In this document: positions 7,546 through 41,838 of the stretch, piece after piece | How the letters are laid out: each line of letters begins with the position of its first letter | Numbering within the stretch: position 1 is the stretch's first letter | Assembly (NCBI GenBank): GCA_964634255.1 | Contig: CAZWJC010000001.1 | Location: 6,116 to 70,115 of the forward strand | DNA from: an uncultured Verrucomicrobiota bacterium | Lineage (GTDB): Bacteria > Verrucomicrobiota > Verrucomicrobiia > Limisphaerales > MWDV01 | DNA: 64,000 nt | Direction of reading: 5' to 3' | Notes under the pieces: generated by a model | What the model was told of the DNA's origin: nothing | The model's input: only the letters and a program-made list of their open reading frames with translations | Database searches by the model: none | Translations under genes and position numbers: made by a program

Positions 7546-8871
7546 ATGAGAACAAAATTCAAACCTGTTGACGGCTCCATCGTCGCGCCCCAAGGCTTCC
7601 TCGCCAGCGGTGTGTTTTGCGACATCAAGCGACTGGGTACGGGCAAGGGTTCGCAGAAAGGCAAGAAGCGCGACCTCGCGCTGATCGTCTCTGAAGTGCC
7701 GGCGACCGTGGCCGGCATGTTCACCACCAACCAGGTTTGTGCCGCGCCGGTCAAGGTTTGCGCCGAACGCGTGAAAGGGGGCGAGGCCCAGGCCATCGTC
7801 GTCAATTCCGGTAACGCCAACGCCTGCACGGGCAAGCAAGGGTTGAAAGACGCCTATGCGATGACGGCGGAACTGGCGAAGCTCCTGCACATGCCGGCGG
7901 AGCACGTCCTCGTCGGCTCGACGGGCCGAATCGGCGTCAACATGCCGATGGCGAACGTTGTCGCCGGCATTCGCGAAGCCGCGCAACTTCTCGGCAACGA
8001 CGTGGCGCACGCGGCGGAAGCCGTCGAGGCCATCATGACCAGCGATACGCGCCCCAAGCAGATTGCGGTCGAATTCAAGCTCGGCGGCAAGCCCGTCCGC
8101 ATCGGCGGCATCTGCAAAGGCGCGGGCATGATCCAGCCCGGCATGAGCGTCACCGGGCATCGGCCCGCCGCCATGCCGCTTCACGCCACGATGCTGTGCT
8201 TCATCACCACGGACGCCGCCATTGAAGCGAAAGCGCTGCAGGCCGCCCTTCAGGAAGCCGTGGCCCAGAGCTTCAATCGCATCACCGTGGACGGCGACAT
8301 GAGCACGAACGACACGGTGCTCGTGCTGGCGAATGGCTTGGCCGAGAACAAGCAACTCGGAACGCGAAGCTCGGAACTCGGAACGTTCCAAGCCGCGCTC
8401 AACCACGTCTGTCTCGAACTCGCGAAGGTGATTGTCCGTGACGGCGAAGGCGTGCATCGCGTCGTGACCGTCCGCGTCTGCGGCGCCAAGACACCCGCAG
8501 ATGCCGATGCCGCGGCGCGTGCGGTGGCCAACAGCCCGCTCGTGAAAACAAGCTGGCACGGCGGCGACCCGAACTGGGGTCGCATCATTGACGCCATCGG
8601 CTACAGCGCGGCGACGGTCGTCGAAGAGAAGGTGGACATCGGCTACAGCGCGCCTGGTGGCCGGAAGATTCTCTGGAGTCTGAAACGCGGCCAGCCGACC
8701 AAGGCCGCTTTCAAGCAGCTTTGCCTTGCCGTCGCGCCGAAGGAATTTGACCTGCACATCCGGCTCAACCTCGGCCAAGCCAGCGCCGTGATGTACGCCG
8801 CCGACCTGACCGAGGACTACGTGGACTTCAACAAAGGCGACGTGACCGACCCGACGACGCTCGGCGGTTAG
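7546..8871 (+). CDS. argJ: bifunctional glutamate N-acetyltransferase / amino-acid acetyltransferase
   Basis: 441 aa; GF.A.G..CGIK-type N-terminus, autoprocessing site HATMLCFITTDA and a C-terminal DLT.DYV..N motif. Confidence 0.95.
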   Translation: MRTKFKPVDGSIVAPQGFLASGVFCDIKRLGTGKGSQKGKKRDLALIVSEVPATVAGMFTTNQVCAAPVKVCAERVKGGEAQAIVVNSGNANACTGKQGLKDAYAMTAELAKLLHMPAEHVLVGSTGRIGVNMPMANVVAGIREAAQLLGNDVAHAAEAVEAIMTSDTRPKQIAVEFKLGGKPVRIGGICKGAGMIQPGMSVTGHRPAAMPLHATMLCFITTDAAIEAKALQAALQEAVAQSFNRITVDGDMSTNDTVLVLANGLAENKQLGTRSSELGTFQAALNHVCLELAKVIVRDGEGVHRVVTVRVCGAKTPADADAAARAVANSPLVKTSWHGGDPNWGRIIDAIGYSAATVVEEKVDIGYSAPGGRKILWSLKRGQPTKAAFKQLCLAVAPKEFDLHIRLNLGQASAVMYAADLTEDYVDFNKGDVTDPTTLGG

Positions 8872-24329: not shown

Positions 24330-24386
24330 GCCGACGTGCCGTCGGCCTGGAACCGCCGCGCGCTAAGCCGCGCCAAAGACCGGCGC
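24330..24386. repeat. REP-like GC-rich hairpins in the hypB / sigma intergenic region
   Basis: Hairpin gccgacg-tgc-cgtcggc (24330-24346). A degenerate gcgcc-aaagacc-ggcgc (24370-24386) followed by tcca resembles the gcgccgg-agga-ccggcgc-actcca unit flanking the RAYT gene. Confidence 0.45.
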
Positions 24387-24491
24387 TCCAGTGTGTCTGA
24401 CGAGTGCAGACGTTGCTCCCATCGGTATGGATTCGGGCTATCCCGCCTCATACCCGCTTGCGCTTCCAGTCTGGCTCCCTACGCTCGCAAC

Positions 24492-25262
24492 GTGAGTGCC
24501 AGCCACACCGACCCAGCCACCACGCCATTGACGGCGGCGGAATCACCCGCGCGCTCCGCGTTTGTGACAACGCAGTGGTCGGCGGTGCTCGCGGCGGGGG
24601 GCGGAGATTCCGCACGTTCACACATGGCGTTGGAGCAACTTTGCCGCAACTACTGGCCGCCACTCTACGCTTACGTCCGGCGGCTCGGCCATTCGCCGCA
24701 CGACGCCCAGGACCTCACGCAAGAGTTCTTCGCCCGGTTGCTGGAGGGCCACGCCATGGCCAAGGCGGACCCTGAGCGGGGACGGTTTCGTTCCTTTCTG
24801 CTCGCGTCGTTCAAGAACTTCCTCGCGCATGAGTGGGAGAAGGCCCGGGCGCAAAAACGCGGCGGGCGGGCCCAAATCCTCTCGCTCGACCTCGACACCG
24901 CCGAAACTCGCTGCGTCCAACCGACTGCGCCGGATGATGCGCCGGACCGGGCTTTTGACCGGCAATGGGCGCTCGCGCTCCTGGACCTTGTGCTGCGCCG
25001 GCTGCGGCAGGAATACGCGGACTGCGGGCGCGATGACCTGTTCCTCGCCTTGAAGGACACGCTTTCCGGTGGCCGATCGGAAATTCCGTATCGCGAGCTG
25101 GGCGCACGGCTGGCGATGAGCGAAGGCGCGGTGAAGGTGGCAGCGCATCGGTTGCGGCAGCGGTATCGCGAACTGCTGCGCGAGGAAATCGCTAACACCG
25201 TGGCTGGCCCGGAGGAAGTTGAGGAAGAGTTGCGGCAGTTGTTTGCGGCGCTGGGTGGGTGA
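24492..25262 (+). CDS. ECF-type RNA polymerase sigma factor (kinase-associated type), copy 1
   Basis: TTQWSAVLAAG N-terminus, region 2 YWPPLYAYVRRLGHSPHDAQDLTQEFF and a region 4 HTH (AVKVAAHRLRQRYRE). Paralogous to 29721-30470 and 50571-51296. Start at GTG 24492 is uncertain; the track ORF begins at 24336. Confidence 0.85.
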   Translation: MSASHTDPATTPLTAAESPARSAFVTTQWSAVLAAGGGDSARSHMALEQLCRNYWPPLYAYVRRLGHSPHDAQDLTQEFFARLLEGHAMAKADPERGRFRSFLLASFKNFLAHEWEKARAQKRGGRAQILSLDLDTAETRCVQPTAPDDAPDRAFDRQWALALLDLVLRRLRQEYADCGRDDLFLALKDTLSGGRSEIPYRELGARLAMSEGAVKVAAHRLRQRYRELLREEIANTVAGPEEVEEELRQLFAALGG

Positions 25263-25434
25263 GCAGACGGACAGTGATCGGTCCCCGGGCACCGCCGCCG
25301 CGAATGCAGGAGCAGTTGAAATCGTCCGCCGGGACGCGTTTCTGTTCGTGCGTGCTGCGCGTCGGGGACGACGCGCGGTCCTGTTGGACCGGCGCGCTGT
25401 AACCTTGGCATTTCTTTCCGGTAGTAACCGGTGT

Positions 25435-28400
25435 ATGAACACAGAAATGTTCGCGTTTCTAGGCATGCCGGAGATCATCGTGATCTTCCTCGTGCTGCTG
25501 GGCATGGCCCTCATGGCCGCGACCGCCGCCGTGTTGCTGGTGTGGTTGCTCCGTCGCCACGAAGGGCAGCCCGAGGTCAATCCGCCGGCCCGGCAATCCG
25601 TCCAGCCGCTGCCGGAATCGGCCAGCACCTGCCCGCGCTGCGGCGCATCCTTGCCCGCCAACTCGCCGCAGGGTCTATGCCCGCGTTGTGTCATGGGCGT
25701 CGGCCTGGCGACACACACGGAAGCCCCTGGCGAAACAGGGCCGCACGGAACGAAGGTGGGCAAGCCCACTCCGTCGCCGGAAGAAATCGCCAAACACTTT
25801 CCGCAGCTCGAGATCATGGAATGCCTTGGGCGTGGTGGCATGGGCGTGGTGTACAAGGCCCGCCAGCCGAAGCTCAACCGGATGGTGGCGTTAAAGATCC
25901 TCGCGCCGGAAAAGGGCGCTGAACCGAAGTTCGCGGAGCGATTTCAGCGCGAGGCTTTGGCTCTCGCCCGGTTGAGTCACCCGAACATCGTCACGGTTCA
26001 CGACTTTGGCGAGGCGGAGGGAATGTTCTACCTGCTCATGGAATATGTGGATGGCGTGAGCTTGCGCCAGACGATGCGCGAAGGGCGCATGAAACCCGAG
26101 GAAGCGCTAGCCATCGTGCCGAAGATTTGCGAGGCGCTCCAGTTCGCCCACGAGCAGGGCATCGTGCATCGCGACATCAAGCCGGAGAACGTGCTGCTCG
26201 ACAGACAGGGCCGCGTGAAGATCGCAGATTTCGGGATCGCGAAGATTGTGGGTGAAGTAGGTCGGGCGGGCAGTCCTCTGCCCGCCGCAGTGCTAGAAGC
26301 AGAAGGCGGCGCGCACGGAGTGACGCGCCATACCAGTGCGCTCACCCAGGATCAGGTCCTCGGCACGCCGCATTACATGGCCCCGGAACAGGTGGAAAAG
26401 CCACAGTTGGTGGATCATCGCGCGGACATCTATTCGCTGGGTGTGGTGTTCTACGAAATGCTCACGGGCGAACTGCCGCTGGGCAAGTTCCAGCCGCCGT
26501 CAAAGAAGGTGCAGGTGGACGTGCGCTTGGATGAAGTAGTGTTGCGCGCGTTGGAGAAGAAGCCGGAACTGCGTTACCAGCAGGCCAGCGTGCTCAAGAC
26601 GCAGGTGGAGACGATTGCCGGCACTGGGACAGAAGGCGTTTCCTCTCATCCGCCAAAGACAGAGCCACGTTTCTTTGATTTCACCATTGGCATGCCGCAG
26701 TTCGTCCAGCGCGATGGACAAGCGCGGTGCTATTGGCCGGGGATCTTGTTGCTGTTCTCCACAATTGGGTTTGCGGTATGCGGCTTCAATCTCGCCAGCG
26801 GCCTCATTATCTGGCTGCTGGACTTGAAACTGCCGCCCGTCATTTCGTTCATCAACCTTGGCGACCTATGGCTGTGGCTGGTCTGGCTCGTGTTCAGCGC
26901 CATCGGTCGCTTGGCGGCCTTGAACTTGGGGGCGGAGAAGATCGGCAGGGCCAGCCTTACGGCATCGAAGAGCGTGAACGTGCTTCTCGTCCTTCTGGTC
27001 GCTGCCGCTTGGGCCTTCGGATTGGGGCATCTGGCTTGGTGGTTGCGCCGCACCTCCACAACCCTGCAGGCGGACAGTGGCTTCCGGATTATTTTGGGGA
27101 TCGCTCTATTGATTTTGGTCGGCTCGTTTCTGATCCGCCGCGTCTGGCGCGCTGTGAACAAGCCTCTCGCGCCCGGCGCACCGGTCGCGGCAGAGTCCGA
27201 GTCTGCTCGCCCGCCTCTCTCCCGGGCTCGCAAACGAGGGTTGTGGCTGAGTCTGGTGGTCCTGCTGGTGGTCGGATTGGTAACACTGGCTATGTGGAGT
27301 GTGCGACGGCAGGACGCAGACCGCCTTTGGGAGCAGCGGAGCTATGTGCAGCAAAAGTTGATGATCGAAACCGAGTCAAGACTTGGAGAGCTTGGCTACA
27401 GCCAAACTTGGTCAAGGACGACGGTCTCAGACGATCTTTCCAAGGCGTGGCGCGAATCCGGCCCGATGACGCGGCGCCGGACAGGTGGCGATCCGGAGTC
27501 GGTCACGAATGCGGCGGTGAGCTTGCATTATCTCGGCAACGGACGCTGGCTGGCGCTCGGTTTAGGGCAACTCTGCGAAGTCCGCTTTGAGATCAACACG
27601 CTGGCGGAGATGGCGCGCGGGCCGCTCCCCGTTCCGCCTCCGCCGCCGAGCAAGTCGTTTGACGATCTGGGGCTGCCGGTTCCACGACTGAACGTCATCG
27701 CCGGATGGAATGGGGAAACGCACGCTTTGCCGGAGCCGGTGTCTGCCGCGGAAGCATGGAAGCAGACGGAGGAATACGCAGCGTGGGAGAAGGTCCGCAA
27801 TGTCCGCAGCTTTACCTTCACCAACGCCTGCGGGTACACGTTTGAAATCCAAGCTTTGATGATGGGGCAACAGGACCAACGTCCGCGACCATTGCTCGGT
27901 GAGACGAAGCTTCGCCGACCTGACGGTGTCCTGTTGGCTTCAGCGCCGGGCGCGAACGGCGCAAACCAGCATTGGGACATCAACGTCATGGATGAGGCTG
28001 GCAACGACGTGACCGCCAAGGTGTCCGTCGAACGAGCCGCCCCCGCCGCCCCGCTTCGCGTCACCGAAGTGCGCTGGCGTCCCGACACGGCAGAGGAACG
28101 GATCTGGTCCGTCAACCGCTTTGGCGTGGCCTACGCAGAAGCCGTGGTGTCGTCCGATGGTATGCGCAAGACCGTTCGGCTGATCGAGGAATTGAAAGAC
28201 GCGCCTTACCCGCAGACGCCCGCCGGTGACGACACCAACGTCGGATTCGGCCCAACGCGCGAGGTCGTCTTGCGTGCCAAGGCGGACTGGACGGATTGCT
28301 TCCTCGACCTGCACACAGGCCGGGTAATCAGCGCTCCGCCGGAGTTGCTCGACAAGCTGCAGGAGACGCGCCCGCTTAATGATCGATTGCGCTCAATCAC

Positions 28401-28794
28401 GGACTGGCTGCGGGACAGCGGCGTCGAACTGGTGGCGCCACCTGGCGAGCACATGCGGTTTGTGGACGGCAATGTCTGCGCGCTGGATACAGGGAGCGGC
28501 AGCGTGTTTGACCGGCAGACACCGCAGTCGGTTTTGAATCTGACCCAGCGCTTTCGCCCGCAGAGCGGAGCCATCACCTTTCCCCCAATCCACGGCCGAG
28601 CAGGGCCGGCCAGCAAGGAAACGGGGACGTGGTTCTTCTGCCGGAGAGAGGAAATGGCCGGAGTGATTGAGATTCTCGATCACGATCGCAATGCGAACGT
28701 GTGGAGACTGCGATACAAGCTGGTGCAGGCGATGCCTTTGACCGAGAGCGAGATGAATTCGTCGCCCGCCTTCGCGCTGGAGAAAGGGCATTGA
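25435..28794 (+). CDS. Hanks-type Ser/Thr protein kinase with N-terminal TM + CxxC..CPxC ribbon, multi-TM region and large C-terminal domain of unknown function, copy 1
   Basis: In-frame ATG 25435. Kinase motifs GRGGMGVVYKA, VALK, HRDIKPENVLL, DFGIAK and GTPHYMAPE, followed by several hydrophobic helices and about 550 aa with no recognised family. Confidence 0.85.
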   Translation: MNTEMFAFLGMPEIIVIFLVLLGMALMAATAAVLLVWLLRRHEGQPEVNPPARQSVQPLPESASTCPRCGASLPANSPQGLCPRCVMGVGLATHTEAPGETGPHGTKVGKPTPSPEEIAKHFPQLEIMECLGRGGMGVVYKARQPKLNRMVALKILAPEKGAEPKFAERFQREALALARLSHPNIVTVHDFGEAEGMFYLLMEYVDGVSLRQTMREGRMKPEEALAIVPKICEALQFAHEQGIVHRDIKPENVLLDRQGRVKIADFGIAKIVGEVGRAGSPLPAAVLEAEGGAHGVTRHTSALTQDQVLGTPHYMAPEQVEKPQLVDHRADIYSLGVVFYEMLTGELPLGKFQPPSKKVQVDVRLDEVVLRALEKKPELRYQQASVLKTQVETIAGTGTEGVSSHPPKTEPRFFDFTIGMPQFVQRDGQARCYWPGILLLFSTIGFAVCGFNLASGLIIWLLDLKLPPVISFINLGDLWLWLVWLVFSAIGRLAALNLGAEKIGRASLTASKSVNVLLVLLVAAAWAFGLGHLAWWLRRTSTTLQADSGFRIILGIALLILVGSFLIRRVWRAVNKPLAPGAPVAAESESARPPLSRARKRGLWLSLVVLLVVGLVTLAMWSVRRQDADRLWEQRSYVQQKLMIETESRLGELGYSQTWSRTTVSDDLSKAWRESGPMTRRRTGGDPESVTNAAVSLHYLGNGRWLALGLGQLCEVRFEINTLAEMARGPLPVPPPPPSKSFDDLGLPVPRLNVIAGWNGETHALPEPVSAAEAWKQTEEYAAWEKVRNVRSFTFTNACGYTFEIQALMMGQQDQRPRPLLGETKLRRPDGVLLASAPGANGANQHWDINVMDEAGNDVTAKVSVERAAPAAPLRVTEVRWRPDTAEERIWSVNRFGVAYAEAVVSSDGMRKTVRLIEELKDAPYPQTPAGDDTNVGFGPTREVVLRAKADWTDCFLDLHTGRVISAPPELLDKLQETRPLNDRLRSITDWLRDSGVELVAPPGEHMRFVDGNVCALDTGSGSVFDRQTPQSVLNLTQRFRPQSGAITFPPIHGRAGPASKETGTWFFCRREEMAGVIEILDHDRNANVWRLRYKLVQAMPLTESEMNSSPAFALEKGH
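26265..26329. repeat. two GC-rich hairpins inside the kinase-1 activation-loop coding region
   Basis: ggcgggcag-tcct-ctgcccgcc (26265-26286; perfect 9-bp stem) and ggcgcgcac-gga-gtg(a)cgcgcc (26308-26329; 9-bp stem with one bulge). They encode ...AGSPLPAA...GGAHGVTRH.... Confidence 0.8.
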
Positions 28795-29060
28795 GCTAGA
28801 TGACGTGAGTGGATCAGCCTTCGACCGAGAGCAGACAAGCGGCATACTGCGCAGGGCCACGCACCATGGTGGTTGAGTGATAAGGGGCAAAAGTTTTTCG
28901 ATTAACACCCGCGCCGCCGGTTGAGGCACGCTCCACGCGCGGATTAGAACGTAGCACATACCGGCCGCATGATGGACCGAGACGCGCAAGCAGAATCCGC
29001 CTTGCGCCGCGAGGAAACAACGTGCCAGCGTGTGCGACACTCAGAACGAAGGTGATAGAC

Positions 29061-29624
29061 ATGAGACTGACAAGGTGGATGGCAATAGGTTTAGCCTGCG
29101 GTTTGATCAGCGTGGGAAGCGTTCGCGCGACGGACACCCCCGGCAAATCTGCGGCGACCGGCGACGAACGCATCGGCATCTACGACTCGCGGGCGATCGC
29201 TTACGCCGAGTTCTGGACCGAGGCGCATCAACGCAAGATCAGCGAGATGGTGAAGGCAGCCAAGGCGGCCAAGAACGCCGGCGAAACGGAGCGGCTCAGA
29301 AAACTGGAGACCGAGCTGAAGGCTGAACAGGAACGCAATCATCTGCAAGTGTTCAGCACGGCGCCAGTGGAAGCGATCATGGCCGGCATGAAGGATCGCG
29401 TGGAGGCGATTCAGAAGGAGGCGGGCGTATCGCAACTGGTGTCCAAGTGGGATGACAAGACGCTCAAAGATCACGCCCGCGCCGAGCAGGTGGACGTCAC
29501 CGACCTGCTGTTGCGCGGCTTCACGCTGAACGAGAAACAGCAAAAGGTCGTGGCTGATCTGCGGGCGAAGAAACCGCTTGCCCTGAAAGAGGCCGAGAAA
29601 CTGATGCGGGAAGGAAAGCTCTGA
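29061..29624 (+). CDS. hypothetical exported protein (weakly Skp/OmpH-like, coiled coil)
   Basis: In-frame ATG 29061 gives signal peptide MRLTRWMAIGLACGLISVGSVRA. The central region is lysine/glutamate-rich and helical. Family assignment is weak. Confidence 0.55.
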   Translation: MRLTRWMAIGLACGLISVGSVRATDTPGKSAATGDERIGIYDSRAIAYAEFWTEAHQRKISEMVKAAKAAKNAGETERLRKLETELKAEQERNHLQVFSTAPVEAIMAGMKDRVEAIQKEAGVSQLVSKWDDKTLKDHARAEQVDVTDLLLRGFTLNEKQQKVVADLRAKKPLALKEAEKLMREGKL

Positions 29625-29720
29625 ACGGGCGGACATCCGCTATCAACTGAACGTGTTGGTTGCGTCACCGCAAGTTCTGGCTGTCATGCTGGCGGCGGTC
29701 TGTGGCAGGCTGCCGCACAG

Positions 29721-30470
29721 ATGAGAACGTCCAGCCCGCCAACTGCCAATCCAGCGCCGCAGGTCTTTCCCAACACGCATTGGTCACTGGTCCTAACGGC
29801 TGGTCGCAGGGACACCCCGCGGGCGCACGAAGCGCTTTCGCGGTTGTGCGAGACTTACTGGTATCCGCTCTACGCCTATGTGCGCCGGCGCGGTCAGTCG
29901 CCCCACGATGCTCAGGACCTTACGCAGGAGTTCTTCGCGCGGCTGCTGGAGCACAACTGGCTGGCCGCGGTCGATCAGGAGCGAGGTCGGTTTCGCACCT
30001 TCCTGCTCACCGCCCTGGAGCGTTTTCTTGCGAATGAGTGGGACAAGGCCCGCGCCCAGAAGCGCGGCGGCGGGAAGCCGGTCTTGCCGCTGCAATTCGA
30101 CACTGCCGAAACGCGCTTCAGCGCCGAGCCAGCCGACACCCGCACGCCGGAACAGACCTTCGAGCGGCGTTGGGCGCTGACGCTGCTGGACGAGGTGTTG
30201 CGCAGGTTGGAAGCGGAGCAACGTGCCGAGGGCAAGGCGGAACACTTCGCCACGCTCAAGCAGTGCCTCGTGGGCGACCGTGCGTCGTTGCCCTACGATC
30301 AAATCGCGCAGGCGACCGGTCTCAGCGAAGGGGCGGTAAAAGTGGCGGTGCATCGCCTCCGCGTGCGCTACCGGGAGCTGCTCCGCGCCGAAATCGCCAA
30401 CACCGTGGCGTCGGCCGATGAAGTGGACGTTGAAATGCGGCATCTCTTTAACGTGCTGACAGGGGGATGA
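29721..30470 (+). CDS. ECF-type RNA polymerase sigma factor (kinase-associated type), copy 2
   Basis: 249 aa; NTHWSLVLTAG, YWYPLYAYVRRRGQSPHDAQDLTQEFFARLLE and AVKVAVHRLRVRYRE. High similarity to copy 1. Confidence 0.9.
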   Translation: MRTSSPPTANPAPQVFPNTHWSLVLTAGRRDTPRAHEALSRLCETYWYPLYAYVRRRGQSPHDAQDLTQEFFARLLEHNWLAAVDQERGRFRTFLLTALERFLANEWDKARAQKRGGGKPVLPLQFDTAETRFSAEPADTRTPEQTFERRWALTLLDEVLRRLEAEQRAEGKAEHFATLKQCLVGDRASLPYDQIAQATGLSEGAVKVAVHRLRVRYRELLRAEIANTVASADEVDVEMRHLFNVLTGG

Positions 30471-30703
30471 AATCCGAAATCCGAAATCCCAAGCACGGCA
30501 GAACAGCCACGGCTGGTTCAAGCAAGGAGCGCGGACAGCCTTGTCCGCGCTGCTTTCGTCGGTCTTCTTCTACCAGCCGCGACAGGACAGCGGTCGAGCG
30601 CCTGGCGGATAGACTCCTGGAGTGGTTCGGGCAAGGGCCGGCTTGGTATTCGGTCTTCGGACTTCGGCATTCCTTCGGTTTTCGACCTTCGGGTTTGAAT
30701 TCC
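30469..30703. repeat. MITE/REP-like palindromic element between sigma-2 and kinase-2
   Basis: Three perfect GAAATCC heptads (30469-30489) on the left. About six degenerate inverse heptads (GGTCTTC, GGACTTC, GGCATTC, GGTTTTC, GACCTTC...) lie at about 30649-30697. Internal perfect 10-bp hairpin agcgcggaca-gcct-tgtccgcgct (30528-30551). Confidence 0.65.
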
Positions 30704-30752
30704 TGTAACCTGCCGCTCCCGGTTGCTTAAGAAGACAGATGGAAGCAGGATC

Positions 30753-33737
30753 ATGGAAACGAAACGCATCTGTCAAAGTTGCGGGCGACCTCTGGCGGAC
30801 GATGCGCCGCAGGGGATGTGCCCGGAGTGCCTCATAAGGGCGGGCTTCGGTACGGGCATTGTGCCCGAACCCGGCGCGCCCACCAGCCAGCCGCCGTTCA
30901 CGCCGCCGCCGCTGGCGGAGATGGCGAAGCTATTTCCGCAGTTCGAGATTACCGAGCTGCTGGGGCGAGGTGGCATGGGCGCGGTCTATCGGGCGCGCCA
31001 GCCCGCTCTGGATCGTTGGGTGGCGCTGAAAGTCCTGCCACCACAGTCCACCTCGAAGCCGGGTTTTGCCGAGCGGTTCAATCGCGAAGCGCGGGCGCTG
31101 GCCCGCCTGAGCCACCCGAACATCGTGGCGGTGCATGAATTTGGCGAGGTGGGCGGCATGCCGTATTTTGTGATGGAATACGTCGAGGGCGTAACGCTGC
31201 GGCAGTTGGTGCGGGAGCGCCGGCTCGAACCGCGCGAGGCGCTGAAGATCGTGCCTCAAATCTGCGAAGCCCTGCAGTTCGCCCACGACGAAGGCGTCGT
31301 CCATCGCGACATCAAGCCGGAGAACATCCTGCTCGACAAACAAGGCCGGGTGAAGATCGCGGACTTTGGCATCGCAAAACTGCTGGAGCGCGGCTGTCCC
31401 AGCCGCAGCGGGAGCGGGAGTTCCGAGGTTGGCGGAGAAGTAGGAGCGTCACATTCAGTTGGAAGTGCTGCGGCTGAGACAGCCGCGCTCCAAGCCGGTC
31501 TCACACAAAACCAGGTCCTCGGTACGCCGCATTACATGGCGCCGGAGCAGGTGGAAAGACCGGCGACCGTGGATCATCGCGCCGACATTTATTCGTTGGG
31601 CGTGGTGTTCTACGAAATGCTCACTGGCGAGCTGCCATTGGGAAGGTTTCAGCCACCGTCGAAGAAGGTTCAAGTGGACGTGCGGCTCGACGAAGTTGTC
31701 CTGCACGCGTTGGAAAAGGAACCGGAGCGCCGTTATCAGCACGCCAGCGAAGTGAAGACGGCCGTCGAGAACCTCTCGACACCAAATGGTAGTCCAGCGG
31801 TGGCGGCACGACTTGGCGCGATCCCGCAGCCGGCATTTGCAGACAAAACCGCTCCTTCAAAGCGACGCGTCCCTTGGCAAATCTGGGTGGCGACGGCGCT
31901 GTTGGCGCTGGAAGGCATCGGCAACTTGTTTGCCATCCCGCGCCAACCGCAGGCAGCCGTGTGGCTGCTGGCGAAGGTCCTCTTCATCACCGGCCTGCTG
32001 CTCGGTTGGCGACCTGTGTTCGTCTTGAACCTCGTCGTCGCTGGCATCCACGTGGTTTACTTCGCCGCCGTTTCCATTCCCGTGGCGCTGATGAACCTCG
32101 TTCTGATGGTGCTCGTCGGCTCGGCGTATCGGTTCTACTTCAACGGAGCACAAGGCGCGTCGCGCCCTGCCGCCGAGGACGAGGCGACGTTGCCGCCGGA
32201 GCAAGCGACTCCCAACGCCGCCTCAGCCACCGCAACGAAGTCGCCGCGGCAAAACACGGCGCTACTGATCCTGGGTGCCGGCTTCGTGCTGCCCTCGGTG
32301 TTGTTCATTTGGTTTCTGCTCGCGGGTCATCGGCTCTATGGCGTGGACCTCGATGCCGATGTGCAGTTCTGGCTGGGTGTCGCCGGTCTGCCGATGAGTG
32401 CCGCGTTGGGATTGATGCTGGCGTGGCTCGGGCATTTGGCCTGCCGTAACGCCGGCTGGTTGTCGGGTTTGGATAGCAGGCCCGGACGCTGGTGTCCGCA
32501 AGCATGGGTGGCGGCGGCCTTGCTCGCCGTCAGCCTGCCCTTCGCAGGCGGGGCTGCGGTGATGGCGCAGCTCATCTCCAAGGACACGAGCGGTTGGCAT
32601 CCGGCCAGCGGTGAATTCTGGCTCGTGATGCTGGTGGCCGCAGGCACGCTGATGACGTTGTTCTCTTCCACGCTGCTGGGGATCACGGCTGCGAGTAAGA
32701 TCCGTCGCGGCCAGCCGCTACTGCGCGGACGTTGGCCCGCGATGGCGGCAGCCTTGTATTGGCCGGCAGTTCTGGTGTTGGTTGGCAGCCTGTTGGCACT
32801 TCCGGGTGGCGCGGACAGCGAGCCCAACCTCCTCGTCACCGGAACAGTGGCGGATGCGGAAACAGGTAAGCCGATTGCCGGCGCGCGCGTGGACGATTCG
32901 CGCTACGGCCCCAACCGCGTTCCCCAAGAAGCATGGACGGACGAAGGCGGGCGGTACGAGTTGCGGACCTGGTATGAGGAGCACACGATCTCGGCGTCCG
33001 CGCCCGGCTACGAACCCGACCTCCAGACCCTGCTGACCAAGCCGTTCGGGAAGGAGAAAGTGACGCAGATGGACTTCAAGTTACGCGCAATCGCCAAACC
33101 AGCCCCCACATCCAAGTCTGGCGTGGACCAAAGCGCTGCTCAGGAGATCGCGCGACTGAAACTCCAGAATGCCGAACAGGAACTGAAGATTGCGGAGAAC
33201 AAGTTCTCCGTGGGCGTCATGACGAAATATGACCTCCAGAAGATCCAGTGGCTGCGCGATATCGCAGTGGCGGAGGTCCAGGGCGATGTGCTGGAAGTCG
33301 CTCGGCTCAAATTGGCGATCGCCGAACTGGAGCTGCAGGTGGCCGACCAGAAGCGTTCTGTCGGCAAGGCCACGCCGCAGGACTGCGAGCAGGCCAGGCT
33401 CGCCCGCGATATCGAGATGGTCCGGTTCAAACAAACCCAAAACGCTCGCAGCAGCGCAACCAACTCAGCACCTGACAGCGCAGGTCGAAGCGAACTCAGA
33501 TTCTCCGCCAAAGGAGATCGCGTCGTGGTGGAATCATCCGATGGCCACAAGCTGACCGCCGACGATGTCAGGCTTGGCACCAACGACACGCTGGTGGCCA
33601 AGGGCAATGGGATTCTCGAGAGGCAGGAACGAAACCTGGAAATGCCGCCCCCCGCCAACCAGCCCTCCAACATCACGAGCGGACGCGCGATTCGAGCACC
33701 TTCCGAGGCGCCGAGCACCAACTCTCCGCCGAAGTGA
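30753..33737 (+). CDS. Hanks-type Ser/Thr protein kinase with CxxC..CPxC ribbon, multi-TM region, carboxypeptidase-regulatory-like domain and coiled coil, copy 2
   Basis: In-frame ATG 30753 (METKRICQSCGRPL...CPEC). Kinase motifs GRGGMGAVYRA, VALK, HRDIKPENILL, DFGIAK and GTPHYMAPE. Later VTGTVADAETGKPIAGARV...GGRYEL resembles a CarboxypepD_reg fold. Confidence 0.9.
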   Translation: METKRICQSCGRPLADDAPQGMCPECLIRAGFGTGIVPEPGAPTSQPPFTPPPLAEMAKLFPQFEITELLGRGGMGAVYRARQPALDRWVALKVLPPQSTSKPGFAERFNREARALARLSHPNIVAVHEFGEVGGMPYFVMEYVEGVTLRQLVRERRLEPREALKIVPQICEALQFAHDEGVVHRDIKPENILLDKQGRVKIADFGIAKLLERGCPSRSGSGSSEVGGEVGASHSVGSAAAETAALQAGLTQNQVLGTPHYMAPEQVERPATVDHRADIYSLGVVFYEMLTGELPLGRFQPPSKKVQVDVRLDEVVLHALEKEPERRYQHASEVKTAVENLSTPNGSPAVAARLGAIPQPAFADKTAPSKRRVPWQIWVATALLALEGIGNLFAIPRQPQAAVWLLAKVLFITGLLLGWRPVFVLNLVVAGIHVVYFAAVSIPVALMNLVLMVLVGSAYRFYFNGAQGASRPAAEDEATLPPEQATPNAASATATKSPRQNTALLILGAGFVLPSVLFIWFLLAGHRLYGVDLDADVQFWLGVAGLPMSAALGLMLAWLGHLACRNAGWLSGLDSRPGRWCPQAWVAAALLAVSLPFAGGAAVMAQLISKDTSGWHPASGEFWLVMLVAAGTLMTLFSSTLLGITAASKIRRGQPLLRGRWPAMAAALYWPAVLVLVGSLLALPGGADSEPNLLVTGTVADAETGKPIAGARVDDSRYGPNRVPQEAWTDEGGRYELRTWYEEHTISASAPGYEPDLQTLLTKPFGKEKVTQMDFKLRAIAKPAPTSKSGVDQSAAQEIARLKLQNAEQELKIAENKFSVGVMTKYDLQKIQWLRDIAVAEVQGDVLEVARLKLAIAELELQVADQKRSVGKATPQDCEQARLARDIEMVRFKQTQNARSSATNSAPDSAGRSELRFSAKGDRVVVESSDGHKLTADDVRLGTNDTLVAKGNGILERQERNLEMPPPANQPSNITSGRAIRAPSEAPSTNSPPK
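31386..31492. repeat. 25-bp inverted repeat (24/25) inside the kinase-2 activation-loop coding region
   Basis: The left arm ggagcgcggctgtcccagccgcagc (31386-31410) is the reverse complement of the right arm gctgcggctgagacagccgcgctcc (31468-31492) with one mismatch. The spacer is 57 nt. Confidence 0.85.
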
Positions 33738-37358: not shown

Positions 37359-38960
37359 TCAGACTCCGCCGCTGAGATTGTCGAGGCGAGTAGCCAGCCA
37401 ACGAATGCCACCTGCATTCAGCCGGTGCGGGTAGACGCACAAGAAGCACAGGAGAAAAATCGGGAATTCCTTAATCAACCTCGGCAAGTCGTTACCACGC
37501 GATTCGAACGCCGCTTTCTTAAGGGTGTCCCAGTTCTGCCTTCGGATGACCTGTCTTTCCCAATCCGTTCCTTGCGAAGACCGCCAAAGGTAAAACTGCC
37601 ATCTGTGAGCAGGAACAAACGATGAGAAGGCAATCTTTGTAATGCTCGGCCAGAGGAGCTTGAGTTGCTGCTTCAGATTTGTCCGCGCTGCCAAGTGGAG
37701 CAGGGCCTCCAGTGTGTGGGAATGGCCGGCAAACGTGTCGTCGAGCGGTTCATCGCTTAGGCCAGTAAGATGAGGCAGGATTTCGTCCACAGAGTAGTAT
37801 GGGTTCGCTAGGAAGGATTTCCCTCGCGGCTTGTTCAAAGTTGTGATTGCTGAGACTAACTGTAGTAACATGCCATCGCTACGAATGCTGCCGTCAATCC
37901 GCGACTGGTAGAAGTGCCAAGCCAAAAACTGAGGGGCTGCGTATTCACCCCAAAGAACCATTTTGCCCGAGTTTCGCAGACAAAACTCTCTGATGAATGT
38001 ATCCGATGCCTCAGACAGACCTTGCGCATCTCGCCAGAGTGCGAGCAGGCTCATCAAGCTGACGAGGTATGTAATTCTCGGCCGTTGCACAAGATGGTCG
38101 GTCAGCGGATCGCCTTCGACTAAATGCTTTCGCTCGCGAAGCTCTTCACACAATCGTCCTAACGCATTCAGCATCGACATCAACGCAATGTCGAATTCGC
38201 CCTTCCAGACCTTTGGAGGCAAATTCCATCGCTCCGCTGCCGCAAGGATGCAGGCCGCGCATATCGTCCATGCTTCAAATTCGGCAGCGTGGTTGTCGGC
38301 ATTCGAGAAGGACGAAGTGGCAAGCGCATTGAGAATCGCCGCGTTGGCAATCGCGCGCCCAGCCTCCTGCACTGTGGGCTTTTGTTTCCCGTGCAAGCTC
38401 AAGGCGCTTTCGAGAAGTGGAGCGAGTTTGTCCTTCGGCAAGGTCTCGCGCCCCGTCATCAGGAACATCTCAATGAGGGTTTTGGTTTGCGGAATGTCGG
38501 GCGGCCAGAAATTCGTCTGGAGCTTCTTAAACATCCGGAAGAGCTCTCCCATCAGGATGGTCCGGATGCGGTGTCTCGGGTGAGCGCGATTGAAATCGTC
38601 AATGGCTCGGATGACCTCTTCCTCAAGTTCCCCGTTTACAACCAAGTATGAGCGGTGTGCTTTTGTGCTTGAGACGGAGGGGTGAACCACTTTTCCAAGT
38701 GCGAGGTCAACAATCTGCTTGCTGATTTCATCTCGCCACTTTTTCAGTCCGATTTTTCCACCATGCGCGCCCTTCAACTGATAGGCACAGGGAATCCCGT
38801 CCGGCGCAATGGTGATTACATCCTTGCCCATCTCCATGCCACAATGGCGAGAGAGATGGAGGACCGTGTGGCCTTCCAATGACAAGGCGTGGCAGAAGGG
38901 TAATTGAAACGTGCGCTCGTTTGCCTTAGCCAACCAGTTTTCGACGACTCTCTCGATCAC
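37359..38960 (-). CDS. unknown-function protein, 533 aa, N-terminal Mrr/PD-(D/E)xK-like motif (second gene of the low-GC pair)
   Basis: GTG start at 38960 preceded by AAAGGAG with an 8-nt spacer. Long ORF in visibly lower-GC DNA. N-terminus E15...GKD47VITIAPDGIPCAYQ61LK63 resembles restriction-endonuclease-like cores. The remainder is helical with no NTPase motif. Confidence 0.7.
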   Translation of the reverse strand: MIERVVENWLAKANERTFQLPFCHALSLEGHTVLHLSRHCGMEMGKDVITIAPDGIPCAYQLKGAHGGKIGLKKWRDEISKQIVDLALGKVVHPSVSSTKAHRSYLVVNGELEEEVIRAIDDFNRAHPRHRIRTILMGELFRMFKKLQTNFWPPDIPQTKTLIEMFLMTGRETLPKDKLAPLLESALSLHGKQKPTVQEAGRAIANAAILNALATSSFSNADNHAAEFEAWTICAACILAAAERWNLPPKVWKGEFDIALMSMLNALGRLCEELRERKHLVEGDPLTDHLVQRPRITYLVSLMSLLALWRDAQGLSEASDTFIREFCLRNSGKMVLWGEYAAPQFLAWHFYQSRIDGSIRSDGMLLQLVSAITTLNKPRGKSFLANPYYSVDEILPHLTGLSDEPLDDTFAGHSHTLEALLHLAARTNLKQQLKLLWPSITKIAFSSFVPAHRWQFYLWRSSQGTDWERQVIRRQNWDTLKKAAFESRGNDLPRLIKEFPIFLLCFLCVYPHRLNAGGIRWLATRLDNLSGGV

Positions 38961-39516
38961 GCCAATCGCTCCTTTTCTTGCTGATCATCTCCTCCACTTT
39001 CTTGCGAAGGGTCGGGTCAGCCTCAATTTGGTCCACAACCTTCTTAAAAGTCTCAAACGCTTCCTTTCCGCAAACGATTGACGGCATGTATGGGTTGCCT
39101 TCGTCGTCAAACTCCGTCTGAATTTGCTCGAACAGTTGGATGAACACCTCTGGCGTTAGCGGTTTACCGCCAAGATTAACCGAGTTGCCGACGCTGCTGA
39201 CGACTTGATCGACCTTCTCAAACATAGCCTTGCTCTGCTGGAAGTGCATTTGGTCTGCCTGCTGCTGAACCATGCGAGCGACATCTTCAGTTTTTGCGTT
39301 TTCGAGTTCCTTGACGTTGAGCTTCATTTCGCTCTTAAACGTCATGAATTTTGAGACATCGACTGAACCATCTTCACGCGCAATGCCCATCCTGTTTCCT
39401 TCAAAGAACCGACGCTTCGGAATTTGGGAGAAGAATCCACGGTTTGGCATCTTAGAGAACGACCGCAGCAAGAGCTTGCGGAGCATTTCTTTACTTTCAG
39501 GATAATCAGGAAGCAT
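38926..39516 (-). CDS. unknown-function protein, 196 aa (first gene of the low-GC pair)
   Basis: ATG at 39516; overlaps the downstream gene by 35 nt. The protein is charged and helical, with no TM segment and no motif I recognise. No clear SD upstream, so the start is uncertain. Confidence 0.6.
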   Translation of the reverse strand: MLPDYPESKEMLRKLLLRSFSKMPNRGFFSQIPKRRFFEGNRMGIAREDGSVDVSKFMTFKSEMKLNVKELENAKTEDVARMVQQQADQMHFQQSKAMFEKVDQVVSSVGNSVNLGGKPLTPEVFIQLFEQIQTEFDDEGNPYMPSIVCGKEAFETFKKVVDQIEADPTLRKKVEEMISKKRSDWRDRESRRKLVG

Positions 39517-39531
39517 TTCGCAATGCGGATT

Positions 39532-39780
39532 CTATTGACCGCTGAAAAGCTTTTCCACCTTCGCCTTCACGCTTTCATCCATCTTGATGAGCGGCGGCCA
39601 GGGGCGTTTGAAACCTTCGCCCGGAATCTTCTTCGTCGCGTCAATGCGGAGTTTGCTGCCGCTGGCGATTTCGCTGGTGGCGTGGTCGAGCACGTCGGAC
39701 GGGCCTTTGTTGAAGATGCTGTCGCGTTGCGGATCGGTGTTGGGGCAGAGGCGAAAGAAAACTTCGCTGGTGTTGTACAT
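39532..39780 (-). pseudogene. C-terminal fragment of a UbiD-family decarboxylase (5' part missing)
   Basis: The 82 codons DPQRDSIFNKGPSDVLDHATSEIASGSKLRIDATKKIPGEGFKRPWPPLIKMD match the extreme C-terminus of UbiD-family enzymes (E. coli UbiD: DPARD...[25 protein letters not shown]...W..PI..D). The roughly 400 upstream codons are absent and replaced by a repeat and a TA cassette. Confidence 0.6.
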
Positions 39781-39847
39781 GTTCTCTTCCTGGCTGCCAT
39801 GCGTCGAATCCTCTCTCCGCCGCCGCCCCAAATCCAGCCCGGAATTG
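39781..39847. repeat. 67-bp direct repeat, copy 1
   Basis: gttctcttcctggctgccatgcgtcgaatcctctctccgccgccgccccaaatccagcccggaattg matches 40798-40864 at 64 of 67 positions, in the same orientation. Confidence 0.9.
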
Positions 39848-39863
39848 TTCGGCCCCCGAGTCG

Positions 39864-40160
39864 TTAACTCAGTCTCCGCGCCCAGTAGCCCGGTCTGCGG
39901 CTCAAGTGCGCCACCGCCACAATCCAGATGCGGTCAGGCTGGATTTCATAGACAACCCTGAAGGGAAACCGTTTGGTCGGGAAGCTCCGTGTGCCGTGGG
40001 AACCTAACTGACCCAATTCGGGCTGTGCCCGGACGAACTCCACGACCGCCTCGACTTCCGTCAGGAACTCGTCTCCCAACCCGGCCCTACGCCCGTCGTA
40101 AAACAGGGCCGAGTCAACGAGTTCTCGGGCGGCGAGCCGATGATAGACCACGCGCATCAT
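39864..40160 (-). CDS. type II toxin, RelE/ParE family
   Basis: 98 aa; A..EL..A..FY...AGLGDEF...V......P..G......R.F...RFPF.VVYEI..D.I.IVAVAH..R.PGYW matches the ParE/RelE plasmid-stabilisation fold family. Confidence 0.85.
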   Translation of the reverse strand: MMRVVYHRLAARELVDSALFYDGRRAGLGDEFLTEVEAVVEFVRAQPELGQLGSHGTRSFPTKRFPFRVVYEIQPDRIWIVAVAHLSRRPGYWARRLS

Positions 40161-40386
40161 GGAGCGTTCGACGAGCCTCGGTCATTGCTTCCTCCGCCGG
40201 TATTCCTTCGACACGCCCAGCGCGAATGTCCTTCACCCGCGCCCCGATTTCATCATCCCAAGCCGCTTTAATATCCGGCGTGGCAAAGCCTTCGACGCTG
40301 GCGACCAATTCCTCGGCAAGTTCAATCCGACGTCGGGCCGGCCATTTCATCACCTGCTTCGCGAGCGTTTCCTGAGCGGTCGTCAT
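40114..40386 (-). CDS. putative addiction-module antitoxin (TIGR02574-like)
   Basis: Start ATG 40386. W(P)ARRRIELAEELVASV....PDIKAAWDDEIGARVKDIRAGRVEGIPAEE is the pattern of the addiction-module-component family found upstream of ParE/RelE toxins. It overlaps the toxin start by 47 nt. Confidence 0.75.
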   Translation of the reverse strand: MTTAQETLAKQVMKWPARRRIELAEELVASVEGFATPDIKAAWDDEIGARVKDIRAGRVEGIPAEEAMTEARRTLHDARGLSSARRPRTR

Positions 40387-40447
40387 GGGTGGATTGTCGA
40401 GCAGGGTTGGAGGTTTGGCAAGGGGGCAGCGAATCCCGCGCATTCGT

Positions 40448-40702: not shown

Positions 40703-40797
40703 ACGGCAAAGGTGTTGCCACCCAGCCGATGGGTTGTCAATCCGGTTCAGCGATTTCCTCCGGGGTCATCCCGCGGTCCTCGCTACCTGTTTCGGGT

Positions 40798-40864
40798 GTT
40801 CTCTTCCTGGCGGCCATGCGTCGCATCCTCTTTCCGCCGCCGCCCCAAATCCAGCCCGGAATTG
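40798..40864. repeat. 67-bp direct repeat, copy 2
   Basis: 64/67 identity to 39781-39847. Lies upstream of parD and is immediately followed by a REP-like unit. Confidence 0.9.
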
Positions 40865-40880
40865 GCCGCGCCGCTTAGCC

Positions 40881-41000
40881 TCACGCGAAGCGTCTTGGAC
40901 TGCGGCCGCCCTCTGCCGCTTTCACCTCGCAACGCACACCGCAGAACCGACCGCCACGCCAAAGCGCCGGAGGGCCGGCGCACTCCAAAACGCTGGTGCG
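40881..41000. repeat. REP-like unit, left flank of the RAYT gene
   Basis: The conserved ends tcacgcgaagcgtcttggactgcggc... and ...aaagcgccggagggccggcgcactccaaaacgctggtgcg are shared with 41706-41838. Contains the hairpin gcgccgg-aggg-ccggcgc. Confidence 0.7.
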
Positions 41001-41124: not shown

Positions 41125-41703
41125 ATGCCAGCGCCCAAGACACCTTGGCCTCACGCACCAACACACCGACTCTCCGATCGCGGCACTTACTTCGTCACCG
41201 CCTCCACTTATCGAAAGGCGCACCATTTTCGCGGCGCAGCACGACTGCGCGTTCTGCACCGTGGCTTACTGACCGTGGCGCGACAGTTCGCCTGGCAACT
41301 GGAGGCTTGGGCTGTTTTCTCCAATCACTACCACTTTGTCGGCCATTCGCCTGCGGATGCGCCTGATGCTTCCAGTTTGAGTGCCATGCTCAGCGTGTTG
41401 CACGTGAAGACTGCCGAGTGGGTCAACAAGCTGGACACCACTCCGGGCCGGCAGGTCTGGTTCAACTACCGTGAGACCAAACTCACCCATCAGCGCTCGT
41501 ATCTGGCGCGGTTGAACTACGTGCATCAGAACGCTGTGAAACATGGCTTGGTGCCAGTGGCATGCCAATACCCGTGGTGCTCGGCGGCGTGGTTTGAACG
41601 CGTTGCTTCGCCCGCCATGGTGAACTCCATCTACCGGTTCAAGATAGATCACGTGTCGATCGAGGATGACTTCGCGCCGGATTCTGACTGGCAACCGAGG
41701 TGA
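41125..41703 (+). CDS. REP-associated tyrosine transposase (RAYT; IS200/IS605 TnpA-like Y1 HuH enzyme)
   Basis: In-frame ATG 41125. HuH motif in VFSNHYHFVG and catalytic Tyr region LNYVHQNAVKHGLV. Flanked on both sides by related hairpin repeats. Confidence 0.85.
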   Translation: MPAPKTPWPHAPTHRLSDRGTYFVTASTYRKAHHFRGAARLRVLHRGLLTVARQFAWQLEAWAVFSNHYHFVGHSPADAPDASSLSAMLSVLHVKTAEWVNKLDTTPGRQVWFNYRETKLTHQRSYLARLNYVHQNAVKHGLVPVACQYPWCSAAWFERVASPAMVNSIYRFKIDHVSIEDDFAPDSDWQPR

Positions 41704-41705
41704 AC

Positions 41706-41838
41706 TCACGCGAAGCGTCTCGGAGTGCGGCAGCCCCCTGCCGCTTTCGGCCTGGCGCGCGTGGTCACTGAATCGCGCACCTTCGCCGCCTCACCTTAAA
41801 GCGCCGGAGGACCGGCGCACTCCACGACGCTGGCGCGC
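41706..41838. repeat. REP-like unit, right flank of the RAYT gene
   Basis: tcacgcgaagcgtctcggagtgcggcagccccctgccgctttc ... aaagcgccggaggaccggcgcactccacgacgctggcgcg. Hairpins gcggcag-cccc-ctgccgc and gcgccgg-agga-ccggcgc. Same orientation as the left unit. Confidence 0.7.

Follow-up and report, generated by a model that had tools for sequence, protein, structure and literature searches.

A GTAG-tagged REP dimer lies in frame in the activation loop of a verrucomicrobial Ser/Thr kinase

The DNA considered here is a stretch of 64,000 nucleotides from an uncultured Verrucomicrobiota bacterium (assembly GCA_964634255.1, contig CAZWJC010000001.1, positions 6,116 to 70,115), referred to below as the window. 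It contains the gene of a Hanks-type Ser/Thr kinase, kinase 1, whose activation loop is lengthened by a palindromic segment located at 26260-26334. This segment is very probably an in-frame, immobilised dimer of GTAG-tagged repetitive extragenic palindromic (REP) units that has been inherited within a kinase subfamily and whose units are maintained at the nucleic-acid level. It would constitute a clean and checkable case in which selfish repeat DNA has been built into the functional regulatory loop of a bacterial signalling kinase. The features concerned are the following.

25435-28794, + strand: kinase 1, Hanks-type Ser/Thr kinase of 1119 aa, intact open reading frame (ORF), membrane segments predicted, C-terminal region long (Pfam Pkinase, E = 1e-52)
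26227-26388, + strand: activation segment of kinase 1, running from DFG through APE, as read in the sequence itself
26260-26334, + strand: whole in-frame REP dimer, 75 nt or 25 codons, reading GRAGSPLPAAVLEAEGGAHGVTRHT and matching the dispersed consensus GGTAGGGCGGGCAGTCCTCTGCCCGCC...GGCGCGCACGGAGTGACGCGCCCTACC
26260-26286, + strand: left REP unit M1, tag GGTcG (mutated GGTAG) followed by the hairpin GGCGGGCAG-TCCT-CTGCCCGCC
26287-26307, + strand: spacer of 21 nt, GCAGTGCTAGAAGCAGAAGGC, with the same length in all nine insert-bearing kinases
26308-26334, + strand: right REP unit M2, inverted, hairpin GGCGCGCAC-GGA-GTG(A)CGCGCC followed by the tag aTACC (mutated CTACC)

Anatomy of the element in kinase 1

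The catalytic motifs GRGGMG, VALK, HRDIKPEN, DFG and APE can all be read directly in the translation of kinase 1, which is identical to entry P0001 of the protein database. The DFG (26227-26235) and APE (26380-26388) codons are separated by 48 residues, compared to 30 in the third kinase of the window (HRD at 54903) and about 25 in mycobacterial PknB. The two lengths measured in the window are those given by the initial annotation, which was made from the DNA letters alone.

That annotation had also described two hairpins within the loop, and both were recovered at the same positions. The first one (26265-26286) is a perfect 9-bp stem closed by a 4-nt loop, and the second (26308-26329) a 9-bp stem with a 3-nt loop and one bulged A. 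The extent then proposed for the element, 26265-26329, was too short: since each hairpin bears a 5-nt tag, the element reaches 5 nt further on each side. Both tags carry a single substitution, with GTCG on the left and ATAC instead of CTAC on the right, and the kinase-1 dimer differs from the dispersed consensus at these two bases only. The consensus of the family reads GGTAGGGCG-GGCAGTCCTCTGCC-CGCC, a variable spacer and GGCG-CGCACGGAGTGaCG-CGCCCTACC, the termini GGTAGGGCG and CGCCCTACC being mutual reverse complements. The kinase-1 insert is a GTAG-tagged REP organised as an inverted dimer, an arrangement known as REPIN.

Three of the six frames of the 75-nt consensus element are open, as the GTAG tag yields TAG in one frame per strand. 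In the frame used by kinase 1, the 75 nt, a multiple of three, contain no stop and encode a Gly/Ala/Pro/Ser-rich peptide of the form GR...PT. The view that a repeat had been absorbed without breaking the frame is therefore upheld, the kinase ORF being intact.

A perfect 9-bp hairpin by itself is no more than expected by chance in the window, where five independent perfect hairpins (at least 9 bp, loops of 3-8 nt) were found versus 2.4 +/- 1.5 in dinucleotide shuffles. The 96-nt segment surrounding the two hairpins folds better than its shuffled versions (z = -3.1), and no Rfam family matched the window at gathering thresholds. What makes the segment non-random is the near identity of its nucleotides to a repeat dispersed across other genomes.

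Dispersion of the repeat family

Exact matches to the 22-mer of the right unit M2 were sought in one genome per species; at least 120 genome stretches contain one, and metagenome-assembled genomes (MAGs) of Verrucomicrobiota account for nearly all of them. The matches listed comprise 141 occurrences of M2, all at loci from genomes other than the source. The sequence CTACC directly follows M2 in 112 of the 141 copies listed, and a left partner unit is found within 110 nt of M2 in 112 of them as well. This partner is M1-like in 55 cases, the exact reverse complement of M2 in 41 and of another kind in 16. The spacers of the family dimers vary in length and sequence, mostly between 17 and 22 nt. 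Most of the listed M2 copies (102/141) are located outside long ORFs. The left unit M1 was detected at 66 sites in the 59 loci examined, allowing up to 3 mismatches.

A peptide search using two insert variants joined as the query retrieved 31 short domain-less ORFs, all of which display GRAGSPLPAA, a variable stretch of 7-15 aa and GAHGVTRPT between unrelated flanks. Two of these copies (L001 and L004) were checked at the DNA level and lie between called genes; they read GGTAG(G/A)GCGGGCAGTCCTCTGCCCGCCGC, a spacer and GACGGCGCGCACGGAGTGACGCGCCCTACC, with both units identical to those of kinase 1 except for the tags. The loop peptide has the general form GRAGSPLPAA...GGAHGVTR(P/H)T. The initial annotation had recognised it as the translation of a dispersed palindromic repeat of Planctomycetes-Verrucomicrobia-Chlamydiae (PVC) genomes; the domain-less ORFs, the near-identical intergenic DNA and the widespread 22-mer bear this out. 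A derivation of the dispersed copies from kinase genes was rejected on account of their unrelated flanks. The stems covary, as 5 of the 9 pairs change on both sides and none of 500 shuffles reaches the observed score; among 37 distinct family members, 93.7% of the cells pair. In PVC genomes, long loops of the 'lineage-specific' kind, as well as many of the short ORFs called hypothetical, are translations of repeats and should be annotated as such.

Two further observations concern these loci. The only Rfam matches on L001 and L004 were to Acido-Lenti-1, adjacent to the element and not on it. In L001, an inverted pair of Acido-Lenti-1 (RF01687) copies, located at 9800-9845 (- strand) and 9956-10001 (+ strand) and about 110 nt apart, precedes the GTAG REP dimer by about 100 nt in the same intergenic gap, and looks like a REP-type doublet rather than a stand-alone small RNA gene. 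The exact 22-mer also occurs in MAGs labelled Bifidobacterium, Bifidobacteriaceae, Klebsiella, Hyphomicrobiales and Sulfotelmatobacter (L018, L019, L034, L035, L037, L054, L058, L064, L076-L078 and L085), most of which are 'binchicken' or co-assembly bins. These copies could be due to mis-binned or mislabelled contigs, or to transfer between phyla.

Conservation of the units at the DNA level

The DNA of the kinase-1 insert (type A below) is present in nine kinases, namely kinase 1, L132, L133 and L206-L211, always at one and the same position, in an unchanged frame and with a spacer of 21 nt. The initial annotation had considered that a segment conserved among orthologous kinases and devoid of other copies would be an ordinary loop. 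The first part of this was observed, as the insert is shared with eight other kinases and is not private to kinase 1; its origin from a repeat stands nevertheless.

Comparison of the nine genes reveals an uneven conservation. Codon identity at identical residues amounts to 96% in the REP units, 74% in the spacer and 63% in the rest of the kinase domain, the corresponding nucleotide identities being 97%, 70% and 75.5%. The two top-ranking 9-codon windows of the whole domain are the two REP units, with values of 0.95-0.975, versus a median of 0.64 and values of 0.67-0.73 for the HRD, DFG and APE motifs. Codon bias is not the cause of this conservation, since rare codons (AGG 5%, AGT 10%, CCT 13% and GGA 16%) are among those conserved in the units. 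A recent transfer of the whole loop cannot explain the identity of the units either, because the spacer located between them is old and diverged. The units thus remain close to the consensus while the spacer and the kinase codons drift, which indicates that they are kept by a process acting at the nucleic-acid level. Short-tract conversion or replacement from other genomic copies is the most likely form of such upkeep. Units that are better conserved at synonymous sites than catalytic motifs also offer a handle on the uniformity of REPs, where conversion and structural selection are the competing causes.

History of the insert among kinases

The kinase relatives retrieved by patterns lying outside the loop display loops of 25-27 residues in 70 of 80 cases, and the short loop is therefore regarded as ancestral. 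Spacer identities in fixed register reach 13-19/21 among seven of the eight insert-bearing kinases other than kinase 1, and the spacers of these seven are clearly homologous. Intergenic spacers (n = 96) match those of kinases at 12/21 at most, even when sliding is allowed, and no convincing kinase-type spacer was found among 112 intergenic dimers. Since the identities between kinases exceed the intergenic maximum, most kinase copies originate from one insertion. The kinase-1 copy likely descends from this common insertion as well, with less security: the flanks IAKIVGE- and -ALTQDQVLGTPHYM, the spacer length, the orientation and the frame are the same in kinase 1, P0002 and P0007, and the divergence of its spacer is considered below.

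In locus L112, two kinase genes lie in tandem on the minus strand, and their loops map to about 1069 and 6312. The left unit of the insert reads GRARHSVRA, the reverse complement of M2, the right unit is shortened, and together they form a perfect long stem of 18 bp (GGTAGGGCGCGTCACTCC / GGAGTGACGCGCCCTACC). The spacer matches the kinase spacer family at 11-14/21. Judging from these sequences, the left unit was apparently swapped for the other unit type and the spacer kept, which supports conversion or replacement.

The following course of events can be proposed. A copy of the REP dimer would have landed in the codons specifying the tip of the activation loop of a Hanks-type kinase linked to an extracytoplasmic function (ECF) sigma factor. 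It may have survived there as a stop-free multiple of three encoding a flexible peptide, at a loop tip predicted to be a disordered surface segment and preceding both the Thr likely to be phosphorylated (LTQDQ) and the P+1 loop. The insert would then have been inherited within the kinase subfamily with its site, frame and 21-nt spacer preserved, its units being held near the genome-wide consensus by conversion or replacement from other copies. The kinase-1 copy is probably no longer mobile, because both of its GTAG tags are mutated.

From what is known of Hanks kinases, the insert comes before both the Thr that is the likely phosphorylation site (here within ALTQDQ) and the P+1 loop (GTPHYMAPE). 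When the kinase domain was modelled with AlphaFold2, a check that the initial annotation had suggested, the catalytic core and N-lobe received a predicted local distance difference test score (pLDDT) of 80-96, and residues 159-200, which comprise the activation loop with its insert, were predicted as coil with a pLDDT of about 30. The loop is predicted to be disordered, weakly so because the C-lobe is poorly modelled. The effect on kinase 1 is probably small and would amount to a longer, floppier and tolerated loop with a few extra Ser/Thr residues.

The activation loop as a recurrent site

The best 120 homologues of kinase 1 are all verrucomicrobial kinases with very varied C-termini, in a list that is biased towards type A since the query carried the insert. 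Their DFG-APE distances are bimodal, with either 25-27 or 37-68 residues. The long loops contain repeat-type peptides of several kinds.

type A (kinase-1 type): GRAGSPLPA..EGGAHGVTRPT
type B: PLTPSLSPSDGERV..GEG
type C: GRDALPRVQADQQVGPT
type C': GRADLPVSQ..AAQQHRPT
type D: VPPSGG..RLKPELQT

These peptides also occur away from kinases: types C and C' in short domain-less ORFs with unrelated flanks, type B in L110, and type D both between genes and, in frame, within an isoleucyl-tRNA synthetase (IleRS) gene. The type-C DNA of L212 is a GGTAGG...CCTACC dimer, and type B is a nested palindrome lacking the GTAG tag. Among the 120 homologues, 62 matches to repeat-type peptides fall in the activation loop, which represents 2.8% of the residues, and two elsewhere; 34 of the 62 belong to families that are not present in the query. 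The two exceptions, at residue ~103 of P0012 and ~143 of P0022, are a second REP dimer (GRAGSPLPAE...RRTRSDAPF) located in the beta4-beta5 loop of the N-lobe, between HEFG and the hinge strand.

The initial annotation had overlooked kinase 2, a paralogue located just downstream of kinase 1 which also carries a palindromic insert.

29721-30470: ECF sigma factor gene of kinase 2, located upstream of it (Sigma70_r2)
30526-30548, + strand: single GGAGC-tagged REP unit, GGAGC-GCGGACA-GCCT-TGTCCGC, between the second sigma gene and kinase 2
30753-33737, + strand: kinase 2 (Pfam Pkinase, E = 8e-52)
31385-31491, + strand: palindrome inserted in the kinase-2 activation loop, 107 nt, inverted GGAGC-GCGGCTG-TCC-CAGCCGC units with stems of 15 + 10 bp (tag-plus-hairpin scan)

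The activation loop of kinase 2 is 56 residues long and the DNA of its insert folds with z = -4.6. The arms follow the tag and stem design of the single unit at 30526 and of the units flanking a REP-associated tyrosine transposase (RAYT)-like gene of the window. Assignment of this insert to the kinase-1 family was rejected, as its arms are GGAGC-tagged. Its spacer contains GTAGG-GCGTCAC, possibly a decayed GTAG unit, which is suggestive at most.

Counting the kinase-2 type and the M2rc/M2 form (M2 preceded by its reverse complement), a variant of A, at least seven forms of insert are found at the loop together with A, B, C, C' and D. On a simple neighbour-joining tree of the kinase domains, calculated with the loop removed and without support values, the loop types are interleaved. 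Half of the nearest neighbours (78-92% domain identity) carry a different loop type; the types cluster above chance, as the nearest neighbour has the same type in 59 of 120 cases versus 27 expected. The nearest domain relative of kinase 1 is P0013, with 83% identity and a type-B loop. It is quite possible, although the proposal is made tentatively, that unrelated repeat families land again and again at the tip of the activation loop in this expanded verrucomicrobial kinase family, where their units would be kept in step with the genome-wide population by conversion or replacement and mobile DNA would continuously rewrite the loop in frame. The occurrence of several families at the same few codons would imply either a target preference or a very narrow tolerance.

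Weighing of the explanations

Several results weigh against an inherited and immobilised REP dimer maintained at the nucleic-acid level. Neither of the kinase-1 hairpins has a second copy within the 64-kb window when up to 3 mismatches are allowed. A tblastn search of 1.4 Mb of loci with the RAYT-like protein of the window found no RAYT, and no RAYT gene with GGTAG-tagged units on its flanks came to light. The structural model adds little to general kinase knowledge, as its C-lobe is poor (mean pLDDT 66). Of all the kinase spacers, that of kinase 1 has diverged furthest, matching the others at 9-11/21 in fixed register, and the homology of the kinase-1 insert with those of the other kinases is less secure for that reason. 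Finally, selection on the function of an RNA or DNA hairpin could equally explain the conservation of the units.

This last point leads to a rather unlikely alternative in which the repeat origin still holds and the hairpins have been co-opted in the kinase gene, either as an mRNA structure slowing translation or setting stability, or as a DNA site bound by a protein. At synonymous sites, no stretch of the domain is indeed more conserved than the units; pairing of the stems is maintained throughout the family, a CAC to CAT change in L209 retains a G-U pair, and the segment folds better than shuffles. However, the same units are equally conserved at hundreds of unrelated intergenic and intragenic places, so that the constraint belongs to the repeat family and not to the kinase. 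Moreover, the unit swap of L112 alters both peptide and stem yet keeps the family consensus, and a GCG to GAG change in L207 and L210 breaks one stem pair. An independent and fairly recent gain of the copy by kinase 1, at the same preferred loop site, is less probable still. The poor match of its spacer to those of other kinases, the presence of other repeat families at this site in near relatives, which indicates that repeated hits occur, and the type-B loop of P0013 would all be explained by such a gain, which likewise weighs against common inheritance. Against it stand the spacer length, orientation, frame and flanking residues shared with P0002 and P0007, the match of 11/21 in fixed register, which exceeds the roughly 6 expected by chance, and the mutation of both tags, suggestive of an old copy.

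The remaining explanations have little to commend them. An ordinary lineage-specific loop under protein selection, with hairpins arising as a by-product of GC-rich Gly/Ala/Arg/Pro codons, would account for the conservation of the peptide among kinases and would agree with the chance frequency of single perfect 9-bp hairpins in the window. It is very improbable and was refuted by the identity of the DNA to dispersed copies outside kinases (the 22-mer in at least 120 stretches) and by the conservation of synonymous sites, rare codons included, far above that of the catalytic motifs; the same synonymous-site evidence led to the rejection of the hairpins as a chance product of GC-rich codons. The spacer between the units is, in addition, less conserved than the domain. 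That kinase 1 is a pseudogene, which the initial annotation had envisaged, or that the segment is an assembly artefact, is scarcely credible: no supporting point was found, the 1119-aa ORF is uninterrupted, retains every catalytic motif and matches Pkinase strongly, and the same insert exists in eight independently assembled kinase genes. The inherited REP dimer remains the best explanation of the data.

In-frame copies in other genes and relation to published repeats

About a fifth of the listed copies (27/141) lie in frames that stay open for 100 codons or more to each side. Pfam domains on both sides of an in-frame insert were identified for GlnRS, a Pyr_redox_2 oxidoreductase, GyrB/ParE and an N6_N4 DNA methylase. 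The IleRS gene (L001, 6054-9089; also in L002 and L003) carries its type-D repeat at about 7900-7990, with the DNA GGAGT-TCCGCC-TTCA-GGCGG...CCGCC-TGAA-GGCGGA-ACTCC reading FGVPPSGG...PPEGGTPN. Single long ORFs with two or three in-frame inserts of different families were observed in L093 (1469 codons), presumably methionine synthase-like, and in L039 (1628 codons), which we take to be DnaE2-like. The inserts of the L093 ORF are EGRAGSPLPAERRARSVAPYQ, a type-B-like stretch and SSEGRAGSPLPATERRARSDAPYP. Five short ORFs (P0151, P0152, P0157, P0162 and P0164) share the sequence MAKK.SG.K...PSALLDTRV(V/I)(Y/F)CGDNLE, presumably the N-terminus of a DNA methyltransferase. Different families are found at the same position in these ORFs, namely A in P0151, C' in the others and C' plus B in P0152; this position would be a second recurrent repeat site.

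GTAG REPs have been described by Di Nocera, De Gregorio and Rocco (2013, BMC Genomics 14:522; PMC3733652) as GC-rich stem-loops of 6-9 bp with GTAG at one end, mostly found as pairs in opposite orientation with spacers of about 20-100 bp. They are mostly intergenic and sometimes intragenic. Dimers, with a coding capacity of 20-30 aa, make up over half of the inserts within genes, and such inserts are most numerous in Opitutus terrae, a verrucomicrobium. Among the genes affected are those of tRNA synthetases, a DNA methylase, DnaE2 and one Ser/Thr kinase of O. terrae, in which the insert occupies residues 625-640, outside the kinase domain. The kinase-1 element shares with these repeats the tagged stem, the inverted pairing, the mostly intergenic spread and the in-frame intragenic dimers. 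Since intragenic GTAG dimers were thus reported in Verrucomicrobia in 2013, the in-frame REP dimer is a known type of insertion. The differences are that the consensus GGTAGGGCG-GGCAGTCCTCTGCC-CGCC could not be matched to any family of that study, whose supplement lacks the peptide strings GRAGSPLP and SPLPA, and that the recurrence at the activation loop and the synonymous conservation of the units are unreported there. Both the loop as a hotspot and the conservation at unit level appear to be new. A literature search for the repeat peptide strings returned nothing, and no paper linking REPs to kinase activation loops was found within an incomplete coverage of the literature.

The Rickettsia palindromic elements (RPEs), cited in the same study, are an analogue only. 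They are likewise palindromic repeats inserted in frame into unrelated genes that still function, and they occupy surface or loop parts of proteins, as does the kinase-1 insert. They differ by their unrelated sequences and their occurrence in another phylum, RPE-1 being longer and RPE-4 and RPE-6 being of the CGTC type. The kinase loop has an additional trait in this comparison: to our knowledge, RPEs have not been reported to recur at a single site of one protein family.

Gene neighbourhood and RAYT-like gene

An ECF sigma factor gene directly precedes kinase 1 and forms a sigma-kinase pair with it.

24336-25262, + strand: ECF-type sigma factor gene directly upstream of kinase 1 (Pfam Sigma70_r2)

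The same gene order, sigma then kinase, is found in L206-L212. Tandem arrays in which ECF sigma and Ser/Thr kinase genes alternate (sigma-kinase-sigma-kinase) occupy 24336-33737 in the window and are also present in L206, L207, L210 and L212. These pairs resemble the ECF43-like group, exemplified by PknS-EcfK of Xanthomonas (PMC13147305), in that an ECF sigma gene lies directly 5' of a membrane Ser/Thr kinase gene and in that the pairs form tandem arrays. Papers on ECF-sigma/kinase pairs or on REPs, as far as an incomplete coverage extends, contain no mention of a repeat-derived activation loop.

The RAYT-like gene mentioned above lies 15 kb from the kinase-1 element and is itself flanked by REP doublets.

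40880-41000: inverted GGAGT/GGACT-tagged REP pair upstream of the RAYT-like gene
41125-41703, + strand: RAYT-like gene (NCBIfam NF047646, PDB 4ER8)
41705-41837: inverted GGAGT-tagged REP pair downstream of the RAYT-like gene, GGAGT-GCGGCAG-CCCC-CTGCCGC + GGAGT-GCGCCGG-TCCT-CCGGCGC

The gene matches NCBIfam NF047646 over model positions 7-146 of 146 with E = 2.8e-19 and 69 bits (curated cut-off 80), PDB 4ER8 (TnpAREP) with E = 2e-4, and Pfam Y1_Tnp weakly (E = 0.08). The NCBIfam and PDB matches were obtained with the shorter ORF, and the full ORF of 222 aa gave no Pfam match.

Elements of the REPIN class do not move autonomously; RAYT (HUH/Y1) transposases mobilise them in the form of single-stranded hairpins. 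The kinase-1 family resembles REPIN/RAYT systems such as that of E. coli TnpAREP (PDB 4ER8) by its inverted doublets and by the covariation that keeps the stems, and it differs from them by its widely variable spacers. The initial annotation had likened the kinase-1 hairpins to the REP units beside the RAYT gene. This holds for the design, both being made of a 5-nt tag, a GC stem of 7-9 bp and a 3-4 nt loop in inverted pairs, and fails for the tag family, which is GGAGT beside the RAYT-like gene and GGTAG in kinase 1. Because of this difference, the product of the RAYT-like gene is probably not the mobiliser of the kinase-1 element.

A direct repeat of 68 nt (96% identity) is located just upstream of the RAYT-like gene, at 39780-39847 and 40797-40864, with about 1 kb between the copies. 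It adjoins a stretch of lower GC content (0.54) at 38000-40000, which is accompanied by an ORF of 533 aa without Pfam match (37359-38960). Two small overlapping ORFs on the minus strand of the low-GC stretch, 39864-40160 and 40114-40443, presumably encode a toxin-antitoxin pair. The direct repeat and the low-GC stretch upstream of the RAYT-like gene may together constitute a mobile island.

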